This document shows positions 36,720 through 52,025 of a stretch of 64,000 nucleotides of DNA, piece by piece. The notes under the pieces are model-generated. The model was not told where the DNA came from. It ran no database searches and saw only the letters and a program-made list of their open reading frames with translations. The number at the start of each line of letters is the position of its first letter. Within the stretch, counting starts at the first letter, position 1. The DNA comes from Fimbriimonadia bacterium. GTDB lineage: Bacteria; Armatimonadota; Fimbriimonadia; Fimbriimonadales; JABRVX01. Location: the NCBI GenBank assembly GCA_041483895.1, contig JBGPGO010000009.1, positions 108,880 to 172,879 of the forward strand. Reading direction: 5' to 3'. The position numbers were made by a program, and so were the translations under genes.

Positions 36720-37304
36720 ATGAACCGCAGCATTCGATTCGCCCTTTTGGCGGCTGCCCTCGCTTGCGTAGGGGCCGTCAACGCTGATGATTTCAACCCG
36801 CCGCCGTGGCGCGGCGCGCCCATGAGCGACTTCCAGCAGTGGGAGTTCAAAACCGATGGCCCGCTTCCGGAACTGTCCAACAACCCGTTCGGTCAACCGG
36901 CGATCACGCAGATCGGTGATTCTCGCTGGCTCGAGACCTTTGAGGGCCGCGACGGCGTCTGGTGCATTCCCGACGGCAGCGCCATGGTTTTCTTCATCCC
37001 GGATGCCGATGACCCGACCGAGCAGAAGATCATCCGAATGCAGGTCACCTACTTCGGTGGCCCGGACGGTTTCACCTGGAACGGCGGTCAATTTGACCAG
37101 GGCTATCAAGACCTTGGCAACGGTTGGACCGGTACCTGGGCGGACTATCTGCTTCCCTGCCAGCCATTCAACGCCTACATCTCCGGTGGCCCAATCTATG
37201 TCGACGAAGTCGTCATTGACGCGGTCTGCGTTCCGGAACCGGGCACGATTGCGGCCTTCGCCGCCGCCGGTCTTGGACTGATCCTTCGCCGACGCAAGAG
37301 ATAG
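36720..37304 (+). CDS. PEP-CTERM protein, paralog 1
   Basis: Signal peptide; VPEPGT + TM + RRRKR. Confidence 0.9.
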   Translation: MNRSIRFALLAAALACVGAVNADDFNPPPWRGAPMSDFQQWEFKTDGPLPELSNNPFGQPAITQIGDSRWLETFEGRDGVWCIPDGSAMVFFIPDADDPTEQKIIRMQVTYFGGPDGFTWNGGQFDQGYQDLGNGWTGTWADYLLPCQPFNAYISGGPIYVDEVVIDAVCVPEPGTIAAFAAAGLGLILRRRKR

Positions 37305-37331
37305 GCGAACCCGAGTCCTCGAGCTCTCAAG

Positions 37332-37360
37332 GCTTCCCGCTAACAAGCGGGAAGCCTTTC
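37332..37360 (+). terminator. Terminator after paralog 1
   Basis: GCTTCCCGCT-AACA-AGCGGGAAGC followed by CTTTC. Confidence 0.65.
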
Positions 37361-37439
37361 TGCTTGCATCAAATCACAAGAACGCCTAGCAATTCTGTCA
37401 TCCCCATTTGCCGGTAATTTCGGCGCGAGCGCATCCGGT

Positions 37440-37454
37440 TGGCATGCAAATTGC
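37440..37454 (+). promoter_or_regulatory. sigma-54 -24/-12 promoter
   Basis: TGGCAT-GCAAA-TTGC. Confidence 0.8.
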
Positions 37455-37533
37455 CGCCTTGAAGGAAGTACGCCGTGACGGCCGGATTGAGCGCGCGGCG
37501 AACACGCATACTCACCAACTGGAGAACAACAAT

Positions 37534-38118
37534 ATGAACCGCAGCATACGATACGCCATCTTGGCGGCTGCCCTCGCATGCGTAGGGGCCGTCAACGCTG
37601 ATGATTTCAACCCGCCGCCGTGGCGCGGTGCTCCCATGAGCGACTTCCAGCAGTGGGAGTTCAAGACCGACGGCCCGCTTCCGGAACTGTCCAACAACCC
37701 GTTCGGCCAACCGGCTATCACGCAGATCGGTGATTCTCGCTGGCTCGAGACCTTTGAGGGTCGAGACGGCGTTTGGTGCATCCCTCAAGGCGGCACCATG
37801 GTTTTCCACATTCCGGATGCCGATGAGCCAACCGAGAAGAAGATCGTTCGCATCCAGGTCACCTTCTTTGGTGGCGCCGCCGGCTTCCATTGGCTGGGCG
37901 ATCCCTTTGACGGTGGCTATGAAGATCGCGGCAATGGTTGGACCGGCGCTTGGGCCGACTACACGTTGCCCTGTCAGCCGTTTGACGTGGTCCTGATCGG
38001 CGGCCCGCTGTATGTGGACGAGATGGTTGTTGATGCCGTATGCGTTCCCGAGCCGGGCACGATTGCGGCCTTCGCCGCCGCCGGCCTTGGATTGGTTCTT
38101 CGACGCCGAAAGCGATAA
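37534..38118 (+). CDS. PEP-CTERM protein, paralog 2
   Basis: N- and C-termini nearly identical to paralog 1. Confidence 0.9.
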   Translation: MNRSIRYAILAAALACVGAVNADDFNPPPWRGAPMSDFQQWEFKTDGPLPELSNNPFGQPAITQIGDSRWLETFEGRDGVWCIPQGGTMVFHIPDADEPTEKKIVRIQVTFFGGAAGFHWLGDPFDGGYEDRGNGWTGAWADYTLPCQPFDVVLIGGPLYVDEMVVDAVCVPEPGTIAAFAAAGLGLVLRRRKR

Positions 38119-38255
38119 CTCCGAGAACAACAAGATGATAGACCCCCCTCGGTTCTCCGCGGGGGGCTTTCCGTTGCGTTCTCGATCAAGGTCTCCGAAA
38201 GCAGGCATTCCAGCCGTCCCAATTTCCCGTTAAGCAACGCAAAACCGCCTGGATT

Positions 38256-38270
38256 TGGCATGGTCCTTGC
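38256..38270 (+). promoter_or_regulatory. sigma-54 -24/-12 promoter
   Basis: TGGCAT-GGTCC-TTGC at the equivalent position. Confidence 0.8.
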
Positions 38271-38349
38271 CTCAACTTATTGAACGCGTGGTCCCGGTGC
38301 GCCGGCACGCTCGATGGCCCAGCACACTCACCAACTGGAGAACAATAAA

Positions 38350-38958
38350 ATGAACCGCAGCATCCGATTCGCCTTATTGGCGACTGCCCTCGCATGCGTC
38401 GGGGTAGCCACCGCAGATGACTTCAACCCGCCACCGTGGCGCGGCGCTCCCATGAGCGACTTTCAGCAGTGGGAGTTCAAGACCGACGGACCGTTCCCGG
38501 AGATTTCCAATAACCCGTTCGGCCAGCCGGCGATGACGGACGTTGACGAAGCGCAATGGCTGGAGACCAAAGAGGGACGCGATGGCGTCTGGTGCATTGG
38601 CGAAGAAGGCAAGCTTGTCTTCCACATTCCGGATGCCGAAGAGCGCGAGATGAAGAAGCTCATCCGCATTCAGATCACTTTCTTCGGTGACGACTTCCAC
38701 TTCATCGGCGATCCGTTCCATCATGGTTTCGTCGATCTAGGCAACGGTTGGCATGGTGGCTGGGCGGACTATGTACGCCAATGCAAACCGTTTGACGTGT
38801 ATATCTTCGGCCCGAATGACGACGACGGCTTGACCCATCAGGACAAGCTCTATGTTGACGAGCTGGTTGTCGACGCCGTCTGCGTTCCGGAGCCGGGCAT
38901 GTTCGCCGGCCTCTCCACCACGGGCCTCGGTCTGGTTCTTCGACGCCGAAAGAGATAA
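38350..38958 (+). CDS. PEP-CTERM protein, paralog 3
   Basis: Same DDFNPPPWRG...VPEPG architecture. Confidence 0.9.
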   Translation: MNRSIRFALLATALACVGVATADDFNPPPWRGAPMSDFQQWEFKTDGPFPEISNNPFGQPAMTDVDEAQWLETKEGRDGVWCIGEEGKLVFHIPDAEEREMKKLIRIQITFFGDDFHFIGDPFHHGFVDLGNGWHGGWADYVRQCKPFDVYIFGPNDDDGLTHQDKLYVDELVVDAVCVPEPGMFAGLSTTGLGLVLRRRKR

Positions 38959-43304: not shown

Positions 43305-44300
43305 CTAACTCTGGCCCATCTTCGCCGCGCTCACGTGTCCCGTGCGCATGAGAATCCACCGCACGATGACAAACAGCACCAGCATCATCCCGAAGGAGCT
43401 GACGAGAGATGGGCCGGTCGGATAGTCGCGGGCGGCTGAGATATAGAGACCCATGACGCTGGCGGCGATGGCGATTCCCCATGCCAAGACGAGTTGCTTC
43501 ATGAACCCCTTCATCACCATCGAGGCCGCCGCCGCGGGGATGATTAGGAAGCTAAACACGACCAGCACACCGGCCATGCGAACCGACTCCGTGACCATCA
43601 ACGCGAACGTGAGATAGAACAAGAAATCCCACCCGATCACTTTCAGCCCGGTCGCCTCGGGATTGTGCGCGCTTTCCGAAATCTGCAGGAACTGACGACG
43701 GAACAGAAAGTGAATCACGCCAATGCCGAAATAGAGGAAAAATGTCCGAATGACATCCGATTGGTTCTGAAACAGAATATTCCCAACCAGCATCGCCTCG
43801 ATCTCGTCTTTGCCATGCACGGATTTGCTCAGCACCATCACCGCAAGCGCCGCCGATACCACATAGAAGATACCGATGATGGCCTCATGTGGCACGCTGT
43901 CGTCGCGGAAACGGCTGACCCCGATGAGCGCCGCCCCGATCACCGCGAAGCCCAATGAGAAAATGTATACAAGTCGGTCCTGTTCCCGGTCATGTTCCGC
44001 CTGCTGCTGTTGCTCAACCTGCTCCGGAGTCATGCCTTTGGCCTGTGCGTGTTCCAGCGCCTCAACCTGCTGTGCGAAGTCGTCGCTAGTCACTGACGAG
44101 TGCACGTCGTGGATGAAATAGGGTGATGCCAGCAGCGCCACCGTCGCACCCAGCGCGGCCATCTGTGCCAGCGCCAGGTCCACAAAAATTACTCCGCGCC
44201 GCAAAACATGCATACCCATATAGACATGCAACCCCGTCATCAAGAGACAGATAAAAAAGGGCCACATCAGCAAATGCCAGAGCTCTATCCAATCATGCAT
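43305..44300 (-). CDS. Zn/Mn-type ABC transporter permease (ZnuB-like)
   Basis: HVLRRGVIFVDLALAQ, HEAIIG, GVLVVFSFLIIPA and DYPTGP. Confidence 0.88.
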   Translation of the reverse strand: MHDWIELWHLLMWPFFICLLMTGLHVYMGMHVLRRGVIFVDLALAQMAALGATVALLASPYFIHDVHSSVTSDDFAQQVEALEHAQAKGMTPEQVEQQQQAEHDREQDRLVYIFSLGFAVIGAALIGVSRFRDDSVPHEAIIGIFYVVSAALAVMVLSKSVHGKDEIEAMLVGNILFQNQSDVIRTFFLYFGIGVIHFLFRRQFLQISESAHNPEATGLKVIGWDFLFYLTFALMVTESVRMAGVLVVFSFLIIPAAAASMVMKGFMKQLVLAWGIAIAASVMGLYISAARDYPTGPSLVSSFGMMLVLFVIVRWILMRTGHVSAAKMGQS

Positions 44301-44327: not shown

Positions 44328-45329
44328 TTATTTCGCCGCCTCGACCAGTTTGGTCACGACGTTGTCGATCATGGCAATGTAGTCCTTGGCGGCCGGCTGC
44401 CCGCCGACGGAGTTGGCCGCGAGCACGACGGTGCCATTCACTTTGCCCGCCACCAGATCGGCGGGTTTGCGGGAATAGAACGGTTCCATCAGGATGATCT
44501 TCGCGCCATCCTGTTTCATGATTTTGATCACATCGAGCACATGGCCGGGACTTGGCTGGATTCCCGGCTTGGGCTCCAGCTCTTCGACGACATCGAATCC
44601 AAATCGCCGCGCGAAGTAGCTCCAGCTTCGGTGATAGGTGACGATTTTCGTGCCCTTCACCTTCTTCACCATCCCCAGCCATCCGCCGTACCGATGGTCG
44701 CCCTTTGCCAGCCACGCATCCAGATCGCCCGCGAAATAGTGGGACCACAGCTTGTCCCCACCTACTGCCGCCGCGCACACTTTGCCGAACATCGCTCCAT
44801 CGAGGTCTTCGACAAACTTGCCATAGTTGGCTTCGTATGTGGACTTTCCGGCCGAGTCCAATCGGATCAGCCGGTCGCGGATCGCCTTCGCGATAATGCG
44901 GCCGTTGTACGGATCGGTCCAATAGTGGGGATTGCCATACGGATGGATGTCTCCCATCGACCGGTCAACGGTCCCTGTCGGCACTTCAAGCTTCGATATG
45001 CCGATGGAGGCATCGAGGAATCCCGGACCGCCCGGCAAGATGGCGGAATTTCGGGCCCCCTGCATCAGGGGCTGGGACCAGGCCTTCTCCAGCTCCATCC
45101 CAACCTCGATGAACAGGTCGGCATTGCGCATCTTGAGCATGTAGCTGGGTTTGGCCTCGATGAAATGGGGGTCCTCCAGGCCCGACGCGATGTTCGTGAC
45201 GCTCACTCGGTTTCCGCCGACCTGCCGCGCGATGTCGGCAAGATCGGGGATAGTTGTTACGACTTTTAGGCTGGCGAGCGCCGGGAGGCAAAGCGCTCCC
45301 AGCGCGGCTAGTACAAACATTTTTTTCAT
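44328..45329 (-). CDS. Zn/Mn-type ABC substrate-binding protein (ZnuA/TroA-like)
   Basis: DPHFIE, GDIHPYGNPHYWTDP, YHRSWSYF and EPKPGIQPSPGH. Confidence 0.92.
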   Translation of the reverse strand: MKKMFVLAALGALCLPALASLKVVTTIPDLADIARQVGGNRVSVTNIASGLEDPHFIEAKPSYMLKMRNADLFIEVGMELEKAWSQPLMQGARNSAILPGGPGFLDASIGISKLEVPTGTVDRSMGDIHPYGNPHYWTDPYNGRIIAKAIRDRLIRLDSAGKSTYEANYGKFVEDLDGAMFGKVCAAAVGGDKLWSHYFAGDLDAWLAKGDHRYGGWLGMVKKVKGTKIVTYHRSWSYFARRFGFDVVEELEPKPGIQPSPGHVLDVIKIMKQDGAKIILMEPFYSRKPADLVAGKVNGTVVLAANSVGGQPAAKDYIAMIDNVVTKLVEAAK

Positions 45330-45341
45330 AAGTATCCTCCC

Positions 45342-46742
45342 TTAGAATTTGTGCGCCGGATGGGCGCCGAAGCCGACTTCATATTGCAGCCAGATAGAAT
45401 GCTGTGGCATGCCAAGGAAATCGGACTGGTCGTAGTTGTATTGGAGCCGGATGCGGCTGAACTCGGATGGGTACCAGGTCAGCGCCGGCGACACCCGCCA
45501 GCGGCGCGCGCGAAGCGGGTCGGCGCTGTTGTCTCCGTTGGCATCGGCGTAGTCGAAGCGCAACCCGGCCACCCAGTTCCTTTGATAGCCGTAGTTGAAT
45601 TCCGAGTACCAACCCCAGTCCTTTAGGTCCTGGCGTGACGTCGTGACGCCCCCTGCTTGGAAGGTGCGCGACATCGCCTCCGCTTGGATCGCCAGGAATG
45701 GGAAGCCGTGGTCGTTCACGCGGGGCTTCCACTTGTAGTAGAGGTCCGTCCCATACAGCTGCGTCCGGTTCGTTGGGCCGGTATTGTTGGGTCCAAAGGC
45801 GCTGGAGAACCCAAGGTTCACCGTCTTTTCGTCGGAAAGCTCCCAGGAGTTGAACCAACGAGCGGTGTACAGCATGTCTCCGAGGGACCGGACCTGGCGA
45901 TCGATGGTTGGGGTTCCCGCAGGTCCGTCCGATCCGAGGAAGCTGGCCGCCGTCCCTCCGCCGGCGTTTTGCGTTCCCAGAATAAACTCCGAATACCAAT
46001 GGAACGGCGTGAGGTATGACAGTTGAACGCCGGGATTGCGCAGGCCGTCGCCGCCGAGCAGCCGACTGGTTATGACCGGCGCATCCACAAAGTTCCACGC
46101 ATGGGGATGCCGAGCGTTGAGACGCCCGAATTGGGTGAAGTATTGCCCGCTCTTGATCTCCATCGAGTTGGGCAGGCTGGTGGTGGTGAGGAAGGCCTCC
46201 TCCACCTCCGTCTCCGTCCCGCCATCGGGACCGAGTTTGAACACCGTGTGCATCTCGGCATTGAAGTAGGGATCGACGGCGCCGTTGAGCGAGAACTCCA
46301 GATTGCGGATGTTGAAGCCGCGATCTTTCGGATCGTGGTCGCCGCCCTGAAGCTGGCCCAGCAGTGTCTGGTCGGCAGTGGACCATCCCGCCGTAGTCAG
46401 GATGTCATAGGAGACATCGATCAGCTTGAGCTGGCCCGGCGCGCCGGTCGCGGGAGCGCTGGGCTGCCCCTGCCCGCCGCCGAGCGCCTTCTCTAGTTCG
46501 GCCTTTAGGGCTTCGTCCTCCGGCGTCTCTTTCTTGCCGGCGGACAACTCGGCGATCGTGGCCTTCAGCGTGGCGATCTCTTCGGCGTGCTGCTTATTGG
46601 CGTCTTCAAGGTCGTTGATGCGCTTGATCAGCGCATCGATTTGATCCTGCTGTTTGTGATTGGGCTGGTTGTCTTGTCCCTGGGCGGTTGCACTCAGGCA
46701 GCCGAGACAGACGATAACAAACCCGATAAGATACCTTTGCAA
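45342..46742 (-). CDS. Outer-membrane beta-barrel of the metal-uptake operon
   Basis: Signal peptide, coiled coil, GAVDPYF, EEAF, FGRLNARHPHAW, PSEFSRIRLQY and C-terminal GAHPAHKF. Confidence 0.8.
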   Translation of the reverse strand: MQRYLIGFVIVCLGCLSATAQGQDNQPNHKQQDQIDALIKRINDLEDANKQHAEEIATLKATIAELSAGKKETPEDEALKAELEKALGGGQGQPSAPATGAPGQLKLIDVSYDILTTAGWSTADQTLLGQLQGGDHDPKDRGFNIRNLEFSLNGAVDPYFNAEMHTVFKLGPDGGTETEVEEAFLTTTSLPNSMEIKSGQYFTQFGRLNARHPHAWNFVDAPVITSRLLGGDGLRNPGVQLSYLTPFHWYSEFILGTQNAGGGTAASFLGSDGPAGTPTIDRQVRSLGDMLYTARWFNSWELSDEKTVNLGFSSAFGPNNTGPTNRTQLYGTDLYYKWKPRVNDHGFPFLAIQAEAMSRTFQAGGVTTSRQDLKDWGWYSEFNYGYQRNWVAGLRFDYADANGDNSADPLRARRWRVSPALTWYPSEFSRIRLQYNYDQSDFLGMPQHSIWLQYEVGFGAHPAHKF

Positions 46743-46749
46743 GTTATTT

Positions 46750-46791
46750 CCTCCTGTATCGTTGAATGTTTACGCGTCAACGAACAGGAGG
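46750..46791 (-). promoter_or_regulatory. RBS-sequestering mRNA hairpin
   Basis: mRNA CCUCCUGU-UCGUUGA...UCAACGA-U-ACAGGAGG pairs over the AGGAGG RBS of the 46742 gene. Confidence 0.8.
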
Positions 46792-47147
46792 GAAGGAGGG
46801 CCGCGAGCGCCGGTGACTGCAACGGCGCAATTCGTAGGAGGGACCGACGCGTACGTCTCATGCCATGCGACCTTGGTTTCGGAGTGGCCCATGGCGGTAT
46901 ACGCGACAGTTGCGACGAAGCCGCTTAGCGAATGGCAGATCGGGCAGTTCGAGGAATCATGGGACTGCGTCGGGTGGTGATGGGTTGGCAGCTTGCAATC
47001 CGCGGCACACATACCGGCGATCGGCGCATGCGCGCCGCTTGCCGGTTCTTCCGACAGGAGATGGAACGTCGGGGCAAAAAAGTAGATCCCGACGAACCAA
47101 ACTGCCAATTTGGCGAAAATCGCCCGGTTGCGTAGCCTTCGCATCAT
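46770..47147 (-). CDS. DUF2946-like leader protein with CxxC, His cluster and RGPP motif
   Basis: Basic/hydrophobic N-terminus, CAADC, HHH, CPICH and C-terminal ARGPP. Confidence 0.8.
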   Translation of the reverse strand: MMRRLRNRAIFAKLAVWFVGIYFFAPTFHLLSEEPASGAHAPIAGMCAADCKLPTHHHPTQSHDSSNCPICHSLSGFVATVAYTAMGHSETKVAWHETYASVPPTNCAVAVTGARGPPSLLFVDA

Positions 47148-47377
47148 GGCTGTATGGGGCCATTGTACCTAATATTCCGTGAGGAGATTGCCGGATGCAG
47201 CAAATGTGAATAGCTAACACATTTACCGCATTTTGAGATGGCAAGTCATCAGAACCTATTACGTATTTCGTACTCTATGTCGTGCAAAATGACGACAGAT
47301 TCGTACCTTGACGGCGAGGAATAATGAGCTAACAATATAGGTATGGTTCGAGTAGAACCGTTGAAGGAGAATCAGAC

Positions 47378-47725: not shown

Positions 47726-48039
47726 TTGGCTCCGGATTTCGATTTGCAAAGGAATGCAGGACATGTTGATGTGGGTGTTGGCAGTCGTACAATTGTGGTT
47801 TGTCGAACGTTATGTGTCGACCAAGAGGCTTTTGGGAAGTTTGAAGCCGGGCCGGCAGTCCAGTGGACTGGCGCCGGCTCCCAAGACCGATTCCAGACAG
47901 GGCCCATGCGACGCACGTAGAGCGCATGGGCTTCTTGTTGTCTGCCCCAAAACATTGGCCGGCAGCGTCCTCGGTCCGAGGAGAGTGATTTGCTATGGAG
48001 AGTAGCGGCAGCAGATCGGCTGCAAGGAGGCTAGGAAGG

Positions 48040-49110
48040 ATGTACCGAATGCAACGATCACGCGGAGCAGCATCGCAATTGGTCCTTTTCACAATCCCCT
48101 TGGTGGCATTGGTCGCGGTCGCATTGGCCCCGAGCATCCCGAACCAGGATCAGAAGAAGGACAAGCAAGGCGAGACAACCGTGGCAAAGGCGGCCCCGGT
48201 CGACAAGAAATTCTTGGAGCAGGACCACCCGGGTCCCGAGGCCACCAAGGTGGGAATGGAAGCCTGCGGAGACTGCCACGGCAAGCAGGTCGCAAAATTC
48301 TCCGCCTCGAAGCACGCCGTTTATCTGCGAAAAGTGGTGGCCGAAAAGGGTGAGGTATGCGAGTACTGCCACGGGCCCGCAAGCGAGCACGTCGATGAAC
48401 GGGCTAATGTGAAGATCCTCCACTTCCCGCAGCGATCCGCCTATACAGTCAAGCGAACAACAGAATTGTGCGTGAGTTGCCATACGGCCGTTTTGGACAA
48501 GCCCCATTGGCAAGGCAACACGCACGCGATGGCCGACGTAAGCTGCGTCGACTGCCACAGCTTCCATCAGGACGACACGCAGCCCTATCTGTTGCGCAAG
48601 CCGGATATCAAGGTTACGAACAACGTGGCCTTTCGCTACGACGAGAAGCATCCGACCACCAATCAGGCCATCAACGGCGCGTGCCTCAACTGCCACAGGG
48701 AGCAGCAATCGCAGCTGCGAATGCGTTCCCACCATCCGCTGTTCGAAGATCGCGTCAATTGTGCCGATTGCCACGAGCCGCACAAGTCGACCGATCCAAT
48801 GCTGCTTGCCGAGAACCGGGATCTCTCGGAGACCTGTCTCAAGTGCCACACGAACAAGCGAGGCCCGTTTGTGTTCGAGCATGAGCCGGCTCGTGTCGGC
48901 GGGTTGGGTGATAGCTGCCTGACCTGCCATCGCCCCCATGGCTCACCGAACCCAAAATTGACCGTTGCGTTCGGTCGCGGCCTGTGCATTCAGTGTCACA
49001 CCGACATCAACCAAGATGCAGCACACCTCAATCGGCCAGGAAGCTGCTGGCGGTCGGGTTGCCACAGCGACATTCACGGCTCCAACACGAGCCCACTATT
49101 TTTCCACTGA
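48040..49110 (+). CDS. Decaheme c-type cytochrome, MtrA/DmsE family
   Basis: Nine CxxCH plus terminal CWRSGCH; KRGPFVFEHEP, CHRPHGS and IHGSN. Confidence 0.9.
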   Translation: MYRMQRSRGAASQLVLFTIPLVALVAVALAPSIPNQDQKKDKQGETTVAKAAPVDKKFLEQDHPGPEATKVGMEACGDCHGKQVAKFSASKHAVYLRKVVAEKGEVCEYCHGPASEHVDERANVKILHFPQRSAYTVKRTTELCVSCHTAVLDKPHWQGNTHAMADVSCVDCHSFHQDDTQPYLLRKPDIKVTNNVAFRYDEKHPTTNQAINGACLNCHREQQSQLRMRSHHPLFEDRVNCADCHEPHKSTDPMLLAENRDLSETCLKCHTNKRGPFVFEHEPARVGGLGDSCLTCHRPHGSPNPKLTVAFGRGLCIQCHTDINQDAAHLNRPGSCWRSGCHSDIHGSNTSPLFFH

Positions 49111-49117
49111 AAGGAGG

Positions 49118-50839
49118 ATGAAATTGCGAACAATTGGAACCAGCTTCGCGATCCTTCTCGCCTTCGGCATTCTGTCGGCCGGCGCCCAGGACGAGGCTCC
49201 GGTGATCAACCAGTTTGAATTCGATGCCGTGCCCGGTTGGAACAACCTCACCTTCCACGGCAATGAGAGCTTCCTTTTCCAGTACGGAACGATTCCGGAT
49301 GACTTCTTTGGCGACATGGTTGCCGGAACTTTCCGAACCTTTGATACAAAGGAGTTGCTATTCACAGGGATGCTGCGAGATATCGGAGAACGATCCCAAG
49401 CGGGATACGGCAAGCTTGCGTTCGGTGGATCGGAGAGCTACATCCGGTTCTGGTCGGAACGATTTCAGTACTATTCGGATCCGACTCTAGGCGAAGTAAT
49501 CGGCGCGGAGCAGAACTACCGGAAGGCAAAAGGGCATTTCTCGCTTGGAGAGCGCCTTCCCACCGTCGACCTGACGGCATCGGATCGGACAGTCTTCGAA
49601 CCGGACATCGTGCGATTGCGCCCCGGCCCGCCGCAGGATTTTCGGAATTTCCAATATTCCGGCGAAGCAAACTACGCGGTATTCGGCGGGAAATTCCAAT
49701 TTGGCCTCGGCAATTCTCGGTTCGAGGACAACACGGGGTATCAGCCGTCCGGAAATAGCCACAACGTGTCGTTCGGCACGACCCAATCCATCGGCGATCG
49801 GTTTAGCGCCAGCCTGAATATGGCAAACGTATACACAGATCAGGACGGTCTGGGCGGGTCGACTTTGCGAAGCTGGGCCGGATCGGCCACCTGGCTTGTA
49901 TTGCCGAAAGTTGTTTGGCGGGCAAGCGGCCAGATCAATCGAATCCATATCCCGTTCACGGTTTCGCGGTTCGCCAGCCATCGGGATGTGTTCAATACCG
50001 ATGTCAACTGGCGTCCCATCCGGGAATTTGGGCTGCAGGCAGGCTACACACGGAGAAACCTGGAGCGGATTAAAGAGGGTAGCCAAGTCACCCAACGGCC
50101 GGCGATCAATGAAACCTTCGTCACGGCTCGGTATCGGCCTGGCGCCCTTGGTGACCTGATGGCGAGATATCGTACGACCCGTATCATCGACGCGCCGGAG
50201 GCCGATATCAGCGCTTTCGCAAATACCGCGACGCTCTACTATGACCAGGTGGATCGGTTCGACGCGCGATGGAGCAAGATGTTCTGGTACACGACGGATC
50301 TCCATGCGGGCTATCAGTGGTCCAAGAGGAGACACACCGAGAGGGATAGCGAGCTTCGGCTCCAGTCCTTCAATGCGGGCGTGTCATCGGAGTTGAGCCC
50401 GAACCTGAGCTTCCTCATCGACTTTCTGTGGGAAGACTGGAGCGGCAACGGACCGGATTTTGACTCGACCGGCCTCAACACGGGTGACGACGGCAGCGTG
50501 ACATCCGGCGCCGAAAACAGGTTGCTGTTCTCTCAAGGACAATCGGTTACCTTCGGCCTCAACTATCTGCTCAACAATCGAACATGGATCGACGGAACCG
50601 CGGTCGTGTACACCGGCCACGGTGGGGAGCGCGCCCGCAATACATTTGCCGCTATCGACCTGCGGCAAGAGTTCCTGAATGGATTGATCTTTGGAATCGG
50701 CTTCCAGAGACAGGTTTTTACAGACGACTTTGTGGGAGGCAACGACTACGACAGCAATGTCTTCCGCATTACCCTTACTGCCAAGTTCAGTGTTCGAGAA
50801 GCCGGCAAAGGGGAAGGAGAAAATCATGGCGGCAAATAA
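49118..50839 (+). CDS. MtrB/PioB-like outer-membrane beta-barrel
   Basis: Signal peptide; alternating beta-strand pattern; directly follows the decaheme gene. Confidence 0.75.
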   Translation: MKLRTIGTSFAILLAFGILSAGAQDEAPVINQFEFDAVPGWNNLTFHGNESFLFQYGTIPDDFFGDMVAGTFRTFDTKELLFTGMLRDIGERSQAGYGKLAFGGSESYIRFWSERFQYYSDPTLGEVIGAEQNYRKAKGHFSLGERLPTVDLTASDRTVFEPDIVRLRPGPPQDFRNFQYSGEANYAVFGGKFQFGLGNSRFEDNTGYQPSGNSHNVSFGTTQSIGDRFSASLNMANVYTDQDGLGGSTLRSWAGSATWLVLPKVVWRASGQINRIHIPFTVSRFASHRDVFNTDVNWRPIREFGLQAGYTRRNLERIKEGSQVTQRPAINETFVTARYRPGALGDLMARYRTTRIIDAPEADISAFANTATLYYDQVDRFDARWSKMFWYTTDLHAGYQWSKRRHTERDSELRLQSFNAGVSSELSPNLSFLIDFLWEDWSGNGPDFDSTGLNTGDDGSVTSGAENRLLFSQGQSVTFGLNYLLNNRTWIDGTAVVYTGHGGERARNTFAAIDLRQEFLNGLIFGIGFQRQVFTDDFVGGNDYDSNVFRITLTAKFSVREAGKGEGENHGGK

Positions 50840-52025
50840 ATCACTTTGCTCAAAGAGGCTCACCATCGGGTACGGCGCCAGCGTCGCGGTCCTTGCCGCT
50901 GCACTTGTGGTGGGATGCAAGACGGGAGATCTTGTGTCGGGCGGTGGCGACTTCGCACCGCCGGGCACGATTATCTTCAATGACCCATCGCCCATCCCCT
51001 CGGATAACACGCCTCCGACCGCGACAATGCTCGGCAGGGAAATCTGCCAGTCCTGCCACGGTCGATCGACCTCTGCGCATCCGAATGGGATCATCGCGGA
51101 ATGGCTGACGACGCCACACGGAAACGATCCCTCGACACTAGCCGGAAACCTGTTTACGCGTACCGTGGCGGATGGAGACTTTCCGGGCTCACCGTGTTCG
51201 GCGTGCCATACAACTGGGTCGCCGAATTCCGGCGATCCGCTTGGGTCGGTGAACGGCGGCTTCGATACGAGTCAGGCGTATGATTCTGCCCATAATCAAA
51301 AGTTCTGGGGAATCCAATGCGAGGCGTGCCACGGTCCCGGTTCCGCACACGTTGCGGCCGGTGGCGCTCCGAACCTGATCAATCGCGTGCCAAACGCGAA
51401 GAAGACCTGTTGGGGTTGCCATGCGAACGCACCGAATACGAAGGGCGCTACCATCACAGGGCCGGCGACAGATGCCTACATCGCTAAGTACTCCACCTCC
51501 CTGGCGCGTTCCCACGCCGCCGGGGCACTGGCGACCGGTACTGGCGGTTATGAGTATGCTGGAGTTGTGTACAAACACGCTCCACACCCGCAGATTGCGA
51601 ACACATGCCAGACCTGCCATGCGTACCGGATGCGTAATCGCCCAAGCATGGACCACACGACCGTCGCCGTTGCGCCGCAGAAGGAGACCTGCGCTTTCTG
51701 CCACGGCGGAGCGGCCAACGCTTCCGATCTGGGCCATGTCGTTGTCAATCCCCAAGGCGAAACGCTCGAAGAGATCATGGCGGAGATCACCGGATTGATC
51801 ATCCAACTCGGCGGCGTAACGGGGACCGGTGCAATCGATCGGAATGCGGCCGGCGGCGCACTTAAAGCCTATCTCGATGCCGGCGGTTCTAAGAGCGACG
51901 ATAAATACAAGCGCGCCCGCTGGAACCATTCCTATGTCCTGAACGACGCCAGTTTCGGCGCGCACGACTATGACTATGCGAAGCAGCTTCTGGAGACATC
52001 CATCGCGAACCTCCAGGCTCCTTAA
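50826..52025 (+). CDS. Hexaheme c-type cytochrome lipoprotein
   Basis: Lipobox LVVGC; CQSCH, CSACH, CEACH, CWGCH, CQTCH and CAFCH. Confidence 0.85.
   Translation: MAANKSLCSKRLTIGYGASVAVLAAALVVGCKTGDLVSGGGDFAPPGTIIFNDPSPIPSDNTPPTATMLGREICQSCHGRSTSAHPNGIIAEWLTTPHGNDPSTLAGNLFTRTVADGDFPGSPCSACHTTGSPNSGDPLGSVNGGFDTSQAYDSAHNQKFWGIQCEACHGPGSAHVAAGGAPNLINRVPNAKKTCWGCHANAPNTKGATITGPATDAYIAKYSTSLARSHAAGALATGTGGYEYAGVVYKHAPHPQIANTCQTCHAYRMRNRPSMDHTTVAVAPQKETCAFCHGGAANASDLGHVVVNPQGETLEEIMAEITGLIIQLGGVTGTGAIDRNAAGGALKAYLDAGGSKSDDKYKRARWNHSYVLNDASFGAHDYDYAKQLLETSIANLQAP

Follow-up and report, generated by a model that had tools for sequence, protein, structure and literature searches.

A candidate ribosome-arrest leader, with zinc as the probable signal, before a porin-ZnuA-ZnuB operon of a Fimbriimonadia bacterium

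In the SecM/secA system of Escherichia coli, arrest near the C-terminus of the leader peptide exposes the sequestered Shine-Dalgarno (SD) sequence of the next gene, and the arrest is released by export force without a metal cluster. As far as the available text of the papers goes, CruR (Bp2923) of Bordetella pertussis is a copper sensor associated with a TonB-dependent transporter and acts on Rho termination over a 162-nt spacer (PMC9426467); it works without its signal peptide (PMC9426467), and its arrest was demonstrated in PMC12992588. CutF of Rhodobacter capsulatus is an exported nascent sensor; when it stalls at a proline motif near its C-terminus, an SD-hiding stem-loop is melted (10.1101/2025.02.05.636593). 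It needs its own signal peptide (bioRxiv 10.1101/2025.02.05.636593, 10.1101/2022.11.11.516240), stalls at a PPP motif, is EF-P dependent and copper-induced, and controls a detoxifying oxidase.

Fujiwara et al. 2025 (PMC12992588) carried out a survey of RAPP/RGPP arrest peptides, in which RGPP stood out as the motif whose arrest was most stable in different contexts, all seven Streptomyces leaders assayed stalled, and RAPP-like motifs needed upstream context for arrest. Arrest of this class depends on the Arg, resists EF-P and holds the two Pro codons in the P and A sites. The mechanism class is known, and the leader-barrel pairing treated here is already contained in the source data of that survey, in which at least nine rows have a RAPP leader before this barrel family, unremarked in the available text. 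The words 'zinc', 'hairpin', 'stem-loop' and 'Shine' never appear in the main text of PMC12992588, nor do zinc and ZnuA in that of PMC9973294. No publication on a zinc-sensing arrest leader was found; figure panels (for instance the neighbour classes in PMC9973294 Fig. 6 and PMC9426467 Fig. 7) may show the association. The demonstrated cases of nascent-chain metal sensing that were found concern copper only, and no riboswitch is known for zinc according to the available text of PMC9426467.

The window, i.e., the whole stretch of 64,000 nucleotides that was analysed, carries a 125-aa ORF which a sequence-only reading had described as having an export-like N-terminus, CAADC, HHH, CPICH and RGPP, 27 nt before a barrel gene. 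The sequence confirmed each of these features (Table 1) and placed CAADC at residues 47-51, HHH at 56-58, CPICH at 68-72 and RGPP at 115-118. Seven residues separate RGPP from the stop codon, 43 residues lie between CPIC and the Arg of RGPP, and the 27-nt spacer leads from the stop codon to the TTG start of the 466-aa barrel gene. An N-terminal export or membrane segment was indicated by hydropathy and by a helix (residues 3-31) in a structure model of low confidence (pLDDT 67.5, pTM 0.33), from which the metal site was not drawn. An artefact reading of leader and hairpin was ruled out by the motif controls across loci (see below) and by contigs from four of four DNA runs (one run may be the source sample), which span the hairpin and the RGPP codons with zero differing letters. 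A sigma-70 scan displayed no promoter on the strand of the leader.

Table 1. Features of the leader, the hairpin and the operon, with positions in the window
Feature	Position	Strand	Basis
Leader ORF, 125 aa, CruR/CutF-like (DUF2946-like) candidate arrest peptide	46770..47147	-	Sequence, family profile; DUF2946 E 0.079 (below cut-off)
Predicted signal or membrane anchor: hydrophobic stretch at the N-terminus (around residues 9-31), including His29	47055..47123	-	Model helix 3-31, family hydropathy
His/Cys cluster (HHH 56-58, H63, CPICH 68-72); predicted metal site	46932..46982	-	Family conservation
RGPP codons; a stalled ribosome is predicted to hold Pro117 (46799-46797) in its P site	46794..46805	-	Sequence; stall register from the CruR toeprint (PMC12992588, available text)
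Predicted 15-bp anti-RBS hairpin	46750..46791	-	Folding; first 7 nt of the 5' arm at most 15 nt from the predicted P site, pairing with CAGGAGG
AGGAGG, the SD sequence for the barrel gene, 7 nt before its TTG	46750..46755	-	Sequence
Barrel gene, 466 aa	45342..46742	-	Structure model pLDDT 85.8; best folds OmpT and OprP/OprO porins
ZnuA-family solute-binding protein, three invariant His	44328..45329	-	PF01297; sole such gene found in the genome
ZnuB/ABC-3 family permease	43305..44300	-	Family matches

The ORF is interpreted, with the balance of probability in favour, as a ribosome-arrest leader acting in cis, through which a transition metal, zinc being the leading candidate, would control translation of porin, ZnuA and ZnuB. 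That it is a regulatory arrest leader is very likely given its sequence and family; that unmasking of the ribosome-binding site (RBS) would be its main output is likely from the modelled folds; that zinc would be the signal is somewhat favoured by the comparisons below. Under metal scarcity a ribosome would stall at RGPP and cover the anti-SD arm, the RBS of the barrel gene would stay open, and the barrel would be made together with ZnuA and ZnuB by coupling. Once metal is bound by the His/Cys cluster, which lies some 45-60 residues away from the stall site, folding or pulling would free the ribosome, upon which the stem would re-form and the uptake genes would fall quiet. Sensing may take place outside the cytoplasm, on an exported nascent chain as the sequence-only reading proposed, but CruR works without its signal peptide; that reading as a whole is supported in part. 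These steps are modelled on CruR, CutF and RAPP/RGPP biochemistry; the layout, the conservation and the operon type were observed, and the pairing is predicted.

Downstream genes were of a zinc-uptake type. The barrel model showed 16 long strands and no plug, and does not correspond to a TonB-dependent receptor, defined as a 22-strand barrel with a plug domain. In the ZnuA-family protein, His55, His135 and His233 were invariant in 152 of 152 aligned homologues, while the usual fourth Asp was not kept; its best solved-structure match was a zinc-uptake protein, and by E-value manganese and iron proteins matched nearly as well as zinc ones. A zinc-type operon, proposed from the sequence as Zn/Mn-type, is supported by the ZnuA and ZnuB family matches, by this three-His binding protein and by the Zur-type boxes at leaderless orthologues. 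Composed of porin, ZnuA and ZnuB, the operon is not the copper-homeostasis operon of DUF2946/CruR. No ATPase gene lies within it, and among the 103 loci (of L018-L177) whose flank was 2900 nt or longer, only 17 showed an ABC Walker A motif downstream. Barrel identity was at most 35% to order relatives and up to about 50% to other phyla, and the barrel was not found in two same-family genomes, which suggests that the porin-ZnuA-ZnuB cassette was acquired.

Two other features of the window were recorded. A palindrome, AAATGTG-N9-CACATTT (47202-47224, single copy in the genome), lies between the leader and divergent cytochrome genes. The latter, on the forward strand (47995-52025), include a decaheme cytochrome of DmsE/MtrA type (TIGR03508, score over the cut-off), another multiheme protein and an ORF resembling a barrel, which together may form a conduit for extracellular electron transfer. 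Three tandem paralogues (36720-38958, forward strand) share a C-terminal tail of the form VPEP-hydrophobic-RRRKR, presumably PEP-CTERM-like.

A homolog search using the leader sequence returned only itself among five candidates, and the leader family was therefore reached via barrel-gene neighbourhoods. Scans with the barrel gave at least 585 loci in genomes and at least 583 in metagenomes, and the best 80 of each were fetched, a set leaning to close barrels; 137 of these loci had at least 450 nt upstream. A RAPP, RGPP or RSPP leader was found in 111 of these 137 loci, and in 131 once HAPP, HGPP, RPPP, QSPP and LAPP were admitted, lending support to the earlier description of an arrest-type leader of CruR/CutF build. 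The motif R[AG]PP near the end of an ORF at most 300 nt before the barrel occurred in 108/137 loci, compared with 1/121 further upstream, 0/137 on the opposite strand and 1/137 for A[AG]PP. ZnuA came next in 131/132 loci and ZnuB in 91/103 of the same set. Record titles placed the hosts in Proteobacteria, Verrucomicrobiota, Planctomycetota, Gemmatimonadota, Acidobacteriota, Nitrospirota and others. Judged by gene neighbourhoods, the leader-barrel system is widespread rather than special to the Fimbriimonadia lineage; with its presence in many phyla and the RAPP leaders before the barrel in the published source data (PMC12992588, as available), the new context that had been suggested for this lineage is not what distinguishes it. 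Variants at the arrest position comprised HAPP (14 loci), RPPP (3), HGPP, QSPP and LAPP (1 each), carried by L114, L136-L139, L142, L146, L149, L156, L157, L159, L160, L164, L174, L175 and others; HAPP is absent among the arrest motifs named in the available text of PMC12992588.

Across 126 non-redundant leaders with enough sequence to be aligned, mean column identity was 11%, while Cys68 and both Pro were invariant (126/126) and His29 was conserved at 90% or more. A hydrophobic segment was found in 123 leaders, and at least two His near the Cys in 125. CxxC was present in 74 leaders, 70 of which had a spacing of 43-46 residues to the Arg (mode 44); the other 52 were devoid of CxxC at that place, yet kept the His residues and one Cys. 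CAADC, listed earlier among the features of the ORF, was not shared by the family. The suggested HMMER check against DUF2946 (Pfam PF11162) gave 14.2 bits (E 0.079) for the leader, short of the 23.7-bit cut-off. DUF2946 was nevertheless the sole recurrent family match among the 126 leaders, matched by 53 at E <=1 and by only one at E <=1.1e-4 (about the cut-off). A PF11162 search of 50 genomes gave 12 matches, and the 10 listed were mostly these same barrel leaders; no NCBIfam model covered the leaders. Against its family profile the leader, itself included in the alignment, scored 32.9 bits and was the top match of its genome, and the profile, by sequence match alone, found 8304 clusters at E <=0.001. 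Upstream of the starts, TAnnnT was seen 5-10 nt before 36/143 candidate leader ATGs compared to 1/105 barrel ATGs (loci L018-L177), and TTG[AC] 35-38 nt before 36/126 chosen leader starts compared to 6/125, a count partly favoured by the start choice; many leaders look leaderless-mRNA-like.

Zur-type boxes were encountered mainly at leaderless orthologues. The barrel was present in 16 of 60 relatives, 15 of these without the leader, and a palindrome found de novo (ATTGCAA-N5-TTGCAAT) preceded the operon in 13 of the 15 leaderless order relatives, which belong mostly to one family and are not independent. Leave-one-out scores were 13-23 bits in the leaderless relatives and below 4 bits in in-gene controls. 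The palindrome resembles a predicted Desulfovibrio Zur site (PMC545781, available text), and the Zur-type box is here likewise a predicted site. It was absent at the locus (best score 6.1 bits) and at the one leader-bearing relative. A Fur-family gene occurred in 15 of the 16 barrel-bearing relatives' genomes, and Zur was the best match for four of the five such genes tested, all below the curated cut-off. Searches with Pfam and with a profile built from the relatives displayed no Fur/Zur gene in the 95%-complete assembly, and no Fur-family match was found in two same-family genomes either; neither attribute of a Zur regulon, a Zur gene or a box at the promoter, was thus recovered for the operon in this assembly. 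A leaderless gammaproteobacterial locus had a perfect proteobacterial Zur consensus along with a strong Zur match.

Among 23 further Armatimonadota loci, 17 had the leader, and the box was found in 2 of the 14 leader loci scored and in 1 of 6 leaderless ones, bringing the Armatimonadota totals to 14/21 leaderless and 2/16 leader-bearing loci with a Zur-type box. A strong Zur match was kept in 3 of 15 leader-bearing proteobacterial genomes (genome completeness not given). A strict either/or of leader and Zur box was rejected on the two boxed among the 14 further leader loci, the five unboxed of six leaderless ones and the three of 15 proteobacterial genomes with Zur. Rather, the leader tends, across the genomes compared, to stand where Zur control is missing, and both can coexist. 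Two Fimbriimonadales loci, L222 (19.8 bits) and L237 (14.0 bits), carried box and leader together, possibly for double control.

The boxes before leaderless orthologues make it likely that the operon belongs to a zinc regulon. A rival reading is a switch of the same build that responds to another metal (copper, nickel, cobalt or manganese), or to several. Such a switch would fit the tested relatives, all of which sense copper through Cys motifs, and the nickel or cobalt proposed for His-rich CutF-like clusters (PMC9973294, available text). CxxC is a recognised copper motif and the locus leader carries two Cys pairs, CAADC and CPIC, which counts against zinc, as do the near-equal E-values of manganese and iron proteins for the binding protein. 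The box evidence, which includes the two boxed leaders, speaks against this, as do the His third ligand of the binding protein without the fourth Asp and the retention of His and one Cys in the 52 leaders lacking that CxxC. The genome also has, at G000:C5:143127-147437, two DtxR/MntR-family genes in the absence of a Fur-family match, one of them directly before a transporter that we take, from its motif, to be NRAMP-like; these genes likewise weigh against another metal. Another metal is considered unlikely.

The 15-bp stem first read at the junction of leader and barrel gene was found as described, with AGGAGG in its 3' arm. The 5' arm (46791-46777) and the 3' arm (46765-46750, with one bulged U) form 15 Watson-Crick pairs around an 11-nt loop that contains the leader stop codon; folding of 61 nt around the junction gave -22.1 kcal/mol (z -5.93), a stability reached by 0/200 shuffles. 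The hairpin is predicted to hide the RBS of the barrel gene. In the stall register assumed, that of CruR with the first Pro in the P site (PMC12992588, available text), the ribosome covers 46791-46785, the bases pairing with CAGGAGG. With a 30-nt footprint at RGPP, the predicted opening energy of the RBS fell from 17.1 to 7.6-8.7 kcal/mol, at the point where the P site arrives at the RGPP codons; blocking all 45 upstream bases (17.1 to 2.7 kcal/mol) overstates the effect relative to this footprint. By predicted fold and opening energies, the SD-hiding stem-loop thus lies within reach of the stalled ribosome, as in CutF.

Comparable geometry was recovered across loci. With one locus taken per 95% barrel cluster and only RAPP, RGPP and RSPP leaders admitted (115 loci), the predicted partners of the RBS were most frequent between 0 and +17 nt of the assumed P site. 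Cognate footprint-RBS duplexes averaged -14.7 kcal/mol compared to -11.3 for mismatched partners; related loci in these pairing counts are not independent. The stall-induced drop in opening energy was 4.33 kcal/mol compared to 0.57 in shuffles and was larger in 76 of 91 loci, this set covering spacers up to 140 nt. At least three RBS bases were paired into the footprint in only 58/115 loci, and a drop of at least 2 kcal/mol with the 30-nt footprint was obtained in 47/86. Covariation was weak, with one compensatory change in 3 of 11 stem pairs among nine gammaproteobacterial loci. Conservation of motif and hairpin, proposed as a check, accordingly held in part: the motif recurred at homologous loci, and the pairing geometry appears conserved rather than one hairpin sequence. 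Across loci, the Ala, the Gly and the first Pro of the motif showed a roughly three- to four-fold excess of codons ending in U.

Many loci with spacers of about 100 nt, and the half or so with little predicted RBS-footprint pairing, would also suit a leader whose stalling mainly blocks Rho-dependent termination, as in CruR, the hairpin being secondary. Rho is encoded in the genome, and the 100 nt up to the stall were richer in C than in G (mean skew 0.23 compared to 0.01 in the barrel; 0.18 at the locus), a bias for which Pro/Ser-rich coding accounts in part. At the locus, however, the 27-nt spacer is nearly all paired and the anti-SD arm is perfect. Rho as the main output is quite improbable; as both outputs can coexist, its presence and the mildly C-rich stall region mean that termination may add to control by RBS unmasking.

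The claim that a stalled ribosome frees the RBS stood in so far as the anti-RBS arm lies under the predicted footprint, but the opening is not specific to the stall. With the ribosome placed past RGPP, the RBS was predicted to open no less than with the ribosome at the stall, and since the stop codon is inside the loop, any ribosome completing the leader also melts the stem; folding alone therefore fits plain translational coupling too. A leader acting by such coupling, or as a SecM-like export monitor as its hydrophobic N-terminus could suggest (123/126 leaders), would have no metal input. Neither role calls for the invariant Cys and the accompanying His cluster, set at a constant spacing from the motif, and in many proteomes no tetrapeptide is avoided more than RGPP (PMC12992588, available text), so that its retention implies a role; a leader without metal input is very improbable. 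The opposite, CutF-like polarity, in which metal would cause the stall and switch the operon on, has exactly this stem-loop output in copper-induced CutF (as available) and a probable use of the build for induction before two RND efflux-type operons of the genome in its favour, but is given the slightest probability of all, the operon being of uptake type and its orthologues bearing repressor-type boxes over the promoter. The two leaders concerned (G000:C11:107896-108330 and G000:C15:20679-21101, both reverse strand) are Cys-rich RAPP leaders with a predicted stem between the RAPP region and the next SD, before RND-efflux-like operons, where the same build may serve that polarity.

Metal-relieved arrest remains the preferred reading. 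If the leader does read zinc, a second metal would join copper in translational sensing, control of zinc uptake in bacteria without Zur would be explained, and the system would bear on the question posed in PMC12992588 (available text) of how a ligand releases RAPP/RGPP arrest. A broader proposition, held in even balance, is that of a widespread family of zinc-sensing arrest leaders, in which a His/Cys site on the nascent chain controls, through unmasking of the RBS, a self-contained cassette of porin, ZnuA and ZnuB and stands in for Zur, so that the cassette would stay regulated on moving into Zur-less genomes. The locus is a good test case: its spacer has 27 nt, its anti-SD stem is perfect, and there are natural variants that have or lack the second Cys.

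Like CruR, as known from the available text of PMC9426467, the leader is the small first gene of a metal-import operon, with an export-like N-terminus, a C-terminal RAPP-type motif and an expected metal-relieved stall; the spacing of the CxxC motif is 45 in CruR and 43 here, with a family mode of 44. Unlike CruR, it precedes a plug-less porin with ZnuA and ZnuB, has a 27-nt spacer, an anti-SD stem and a His-rich site, and falls below the Pfam cut-off. With CutF (10.1101/2025.02.05.636593, available text) it shares a C-terminal proline motif at which a stall would melt a stem-loop hiding the SD, whereas arrest of RGPP type resists EF-P and this operon serves uptake. The survey of Fujiwara et al. 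(PMC12992588), in its available text, does not analyse the operon treated here, the His/Cys site, the RBS pairing or the relation to Zur. Overall, the predicted output resembles that of SecM and CutF, while the sensor geometry and the expected polarity resemble those of CruR.
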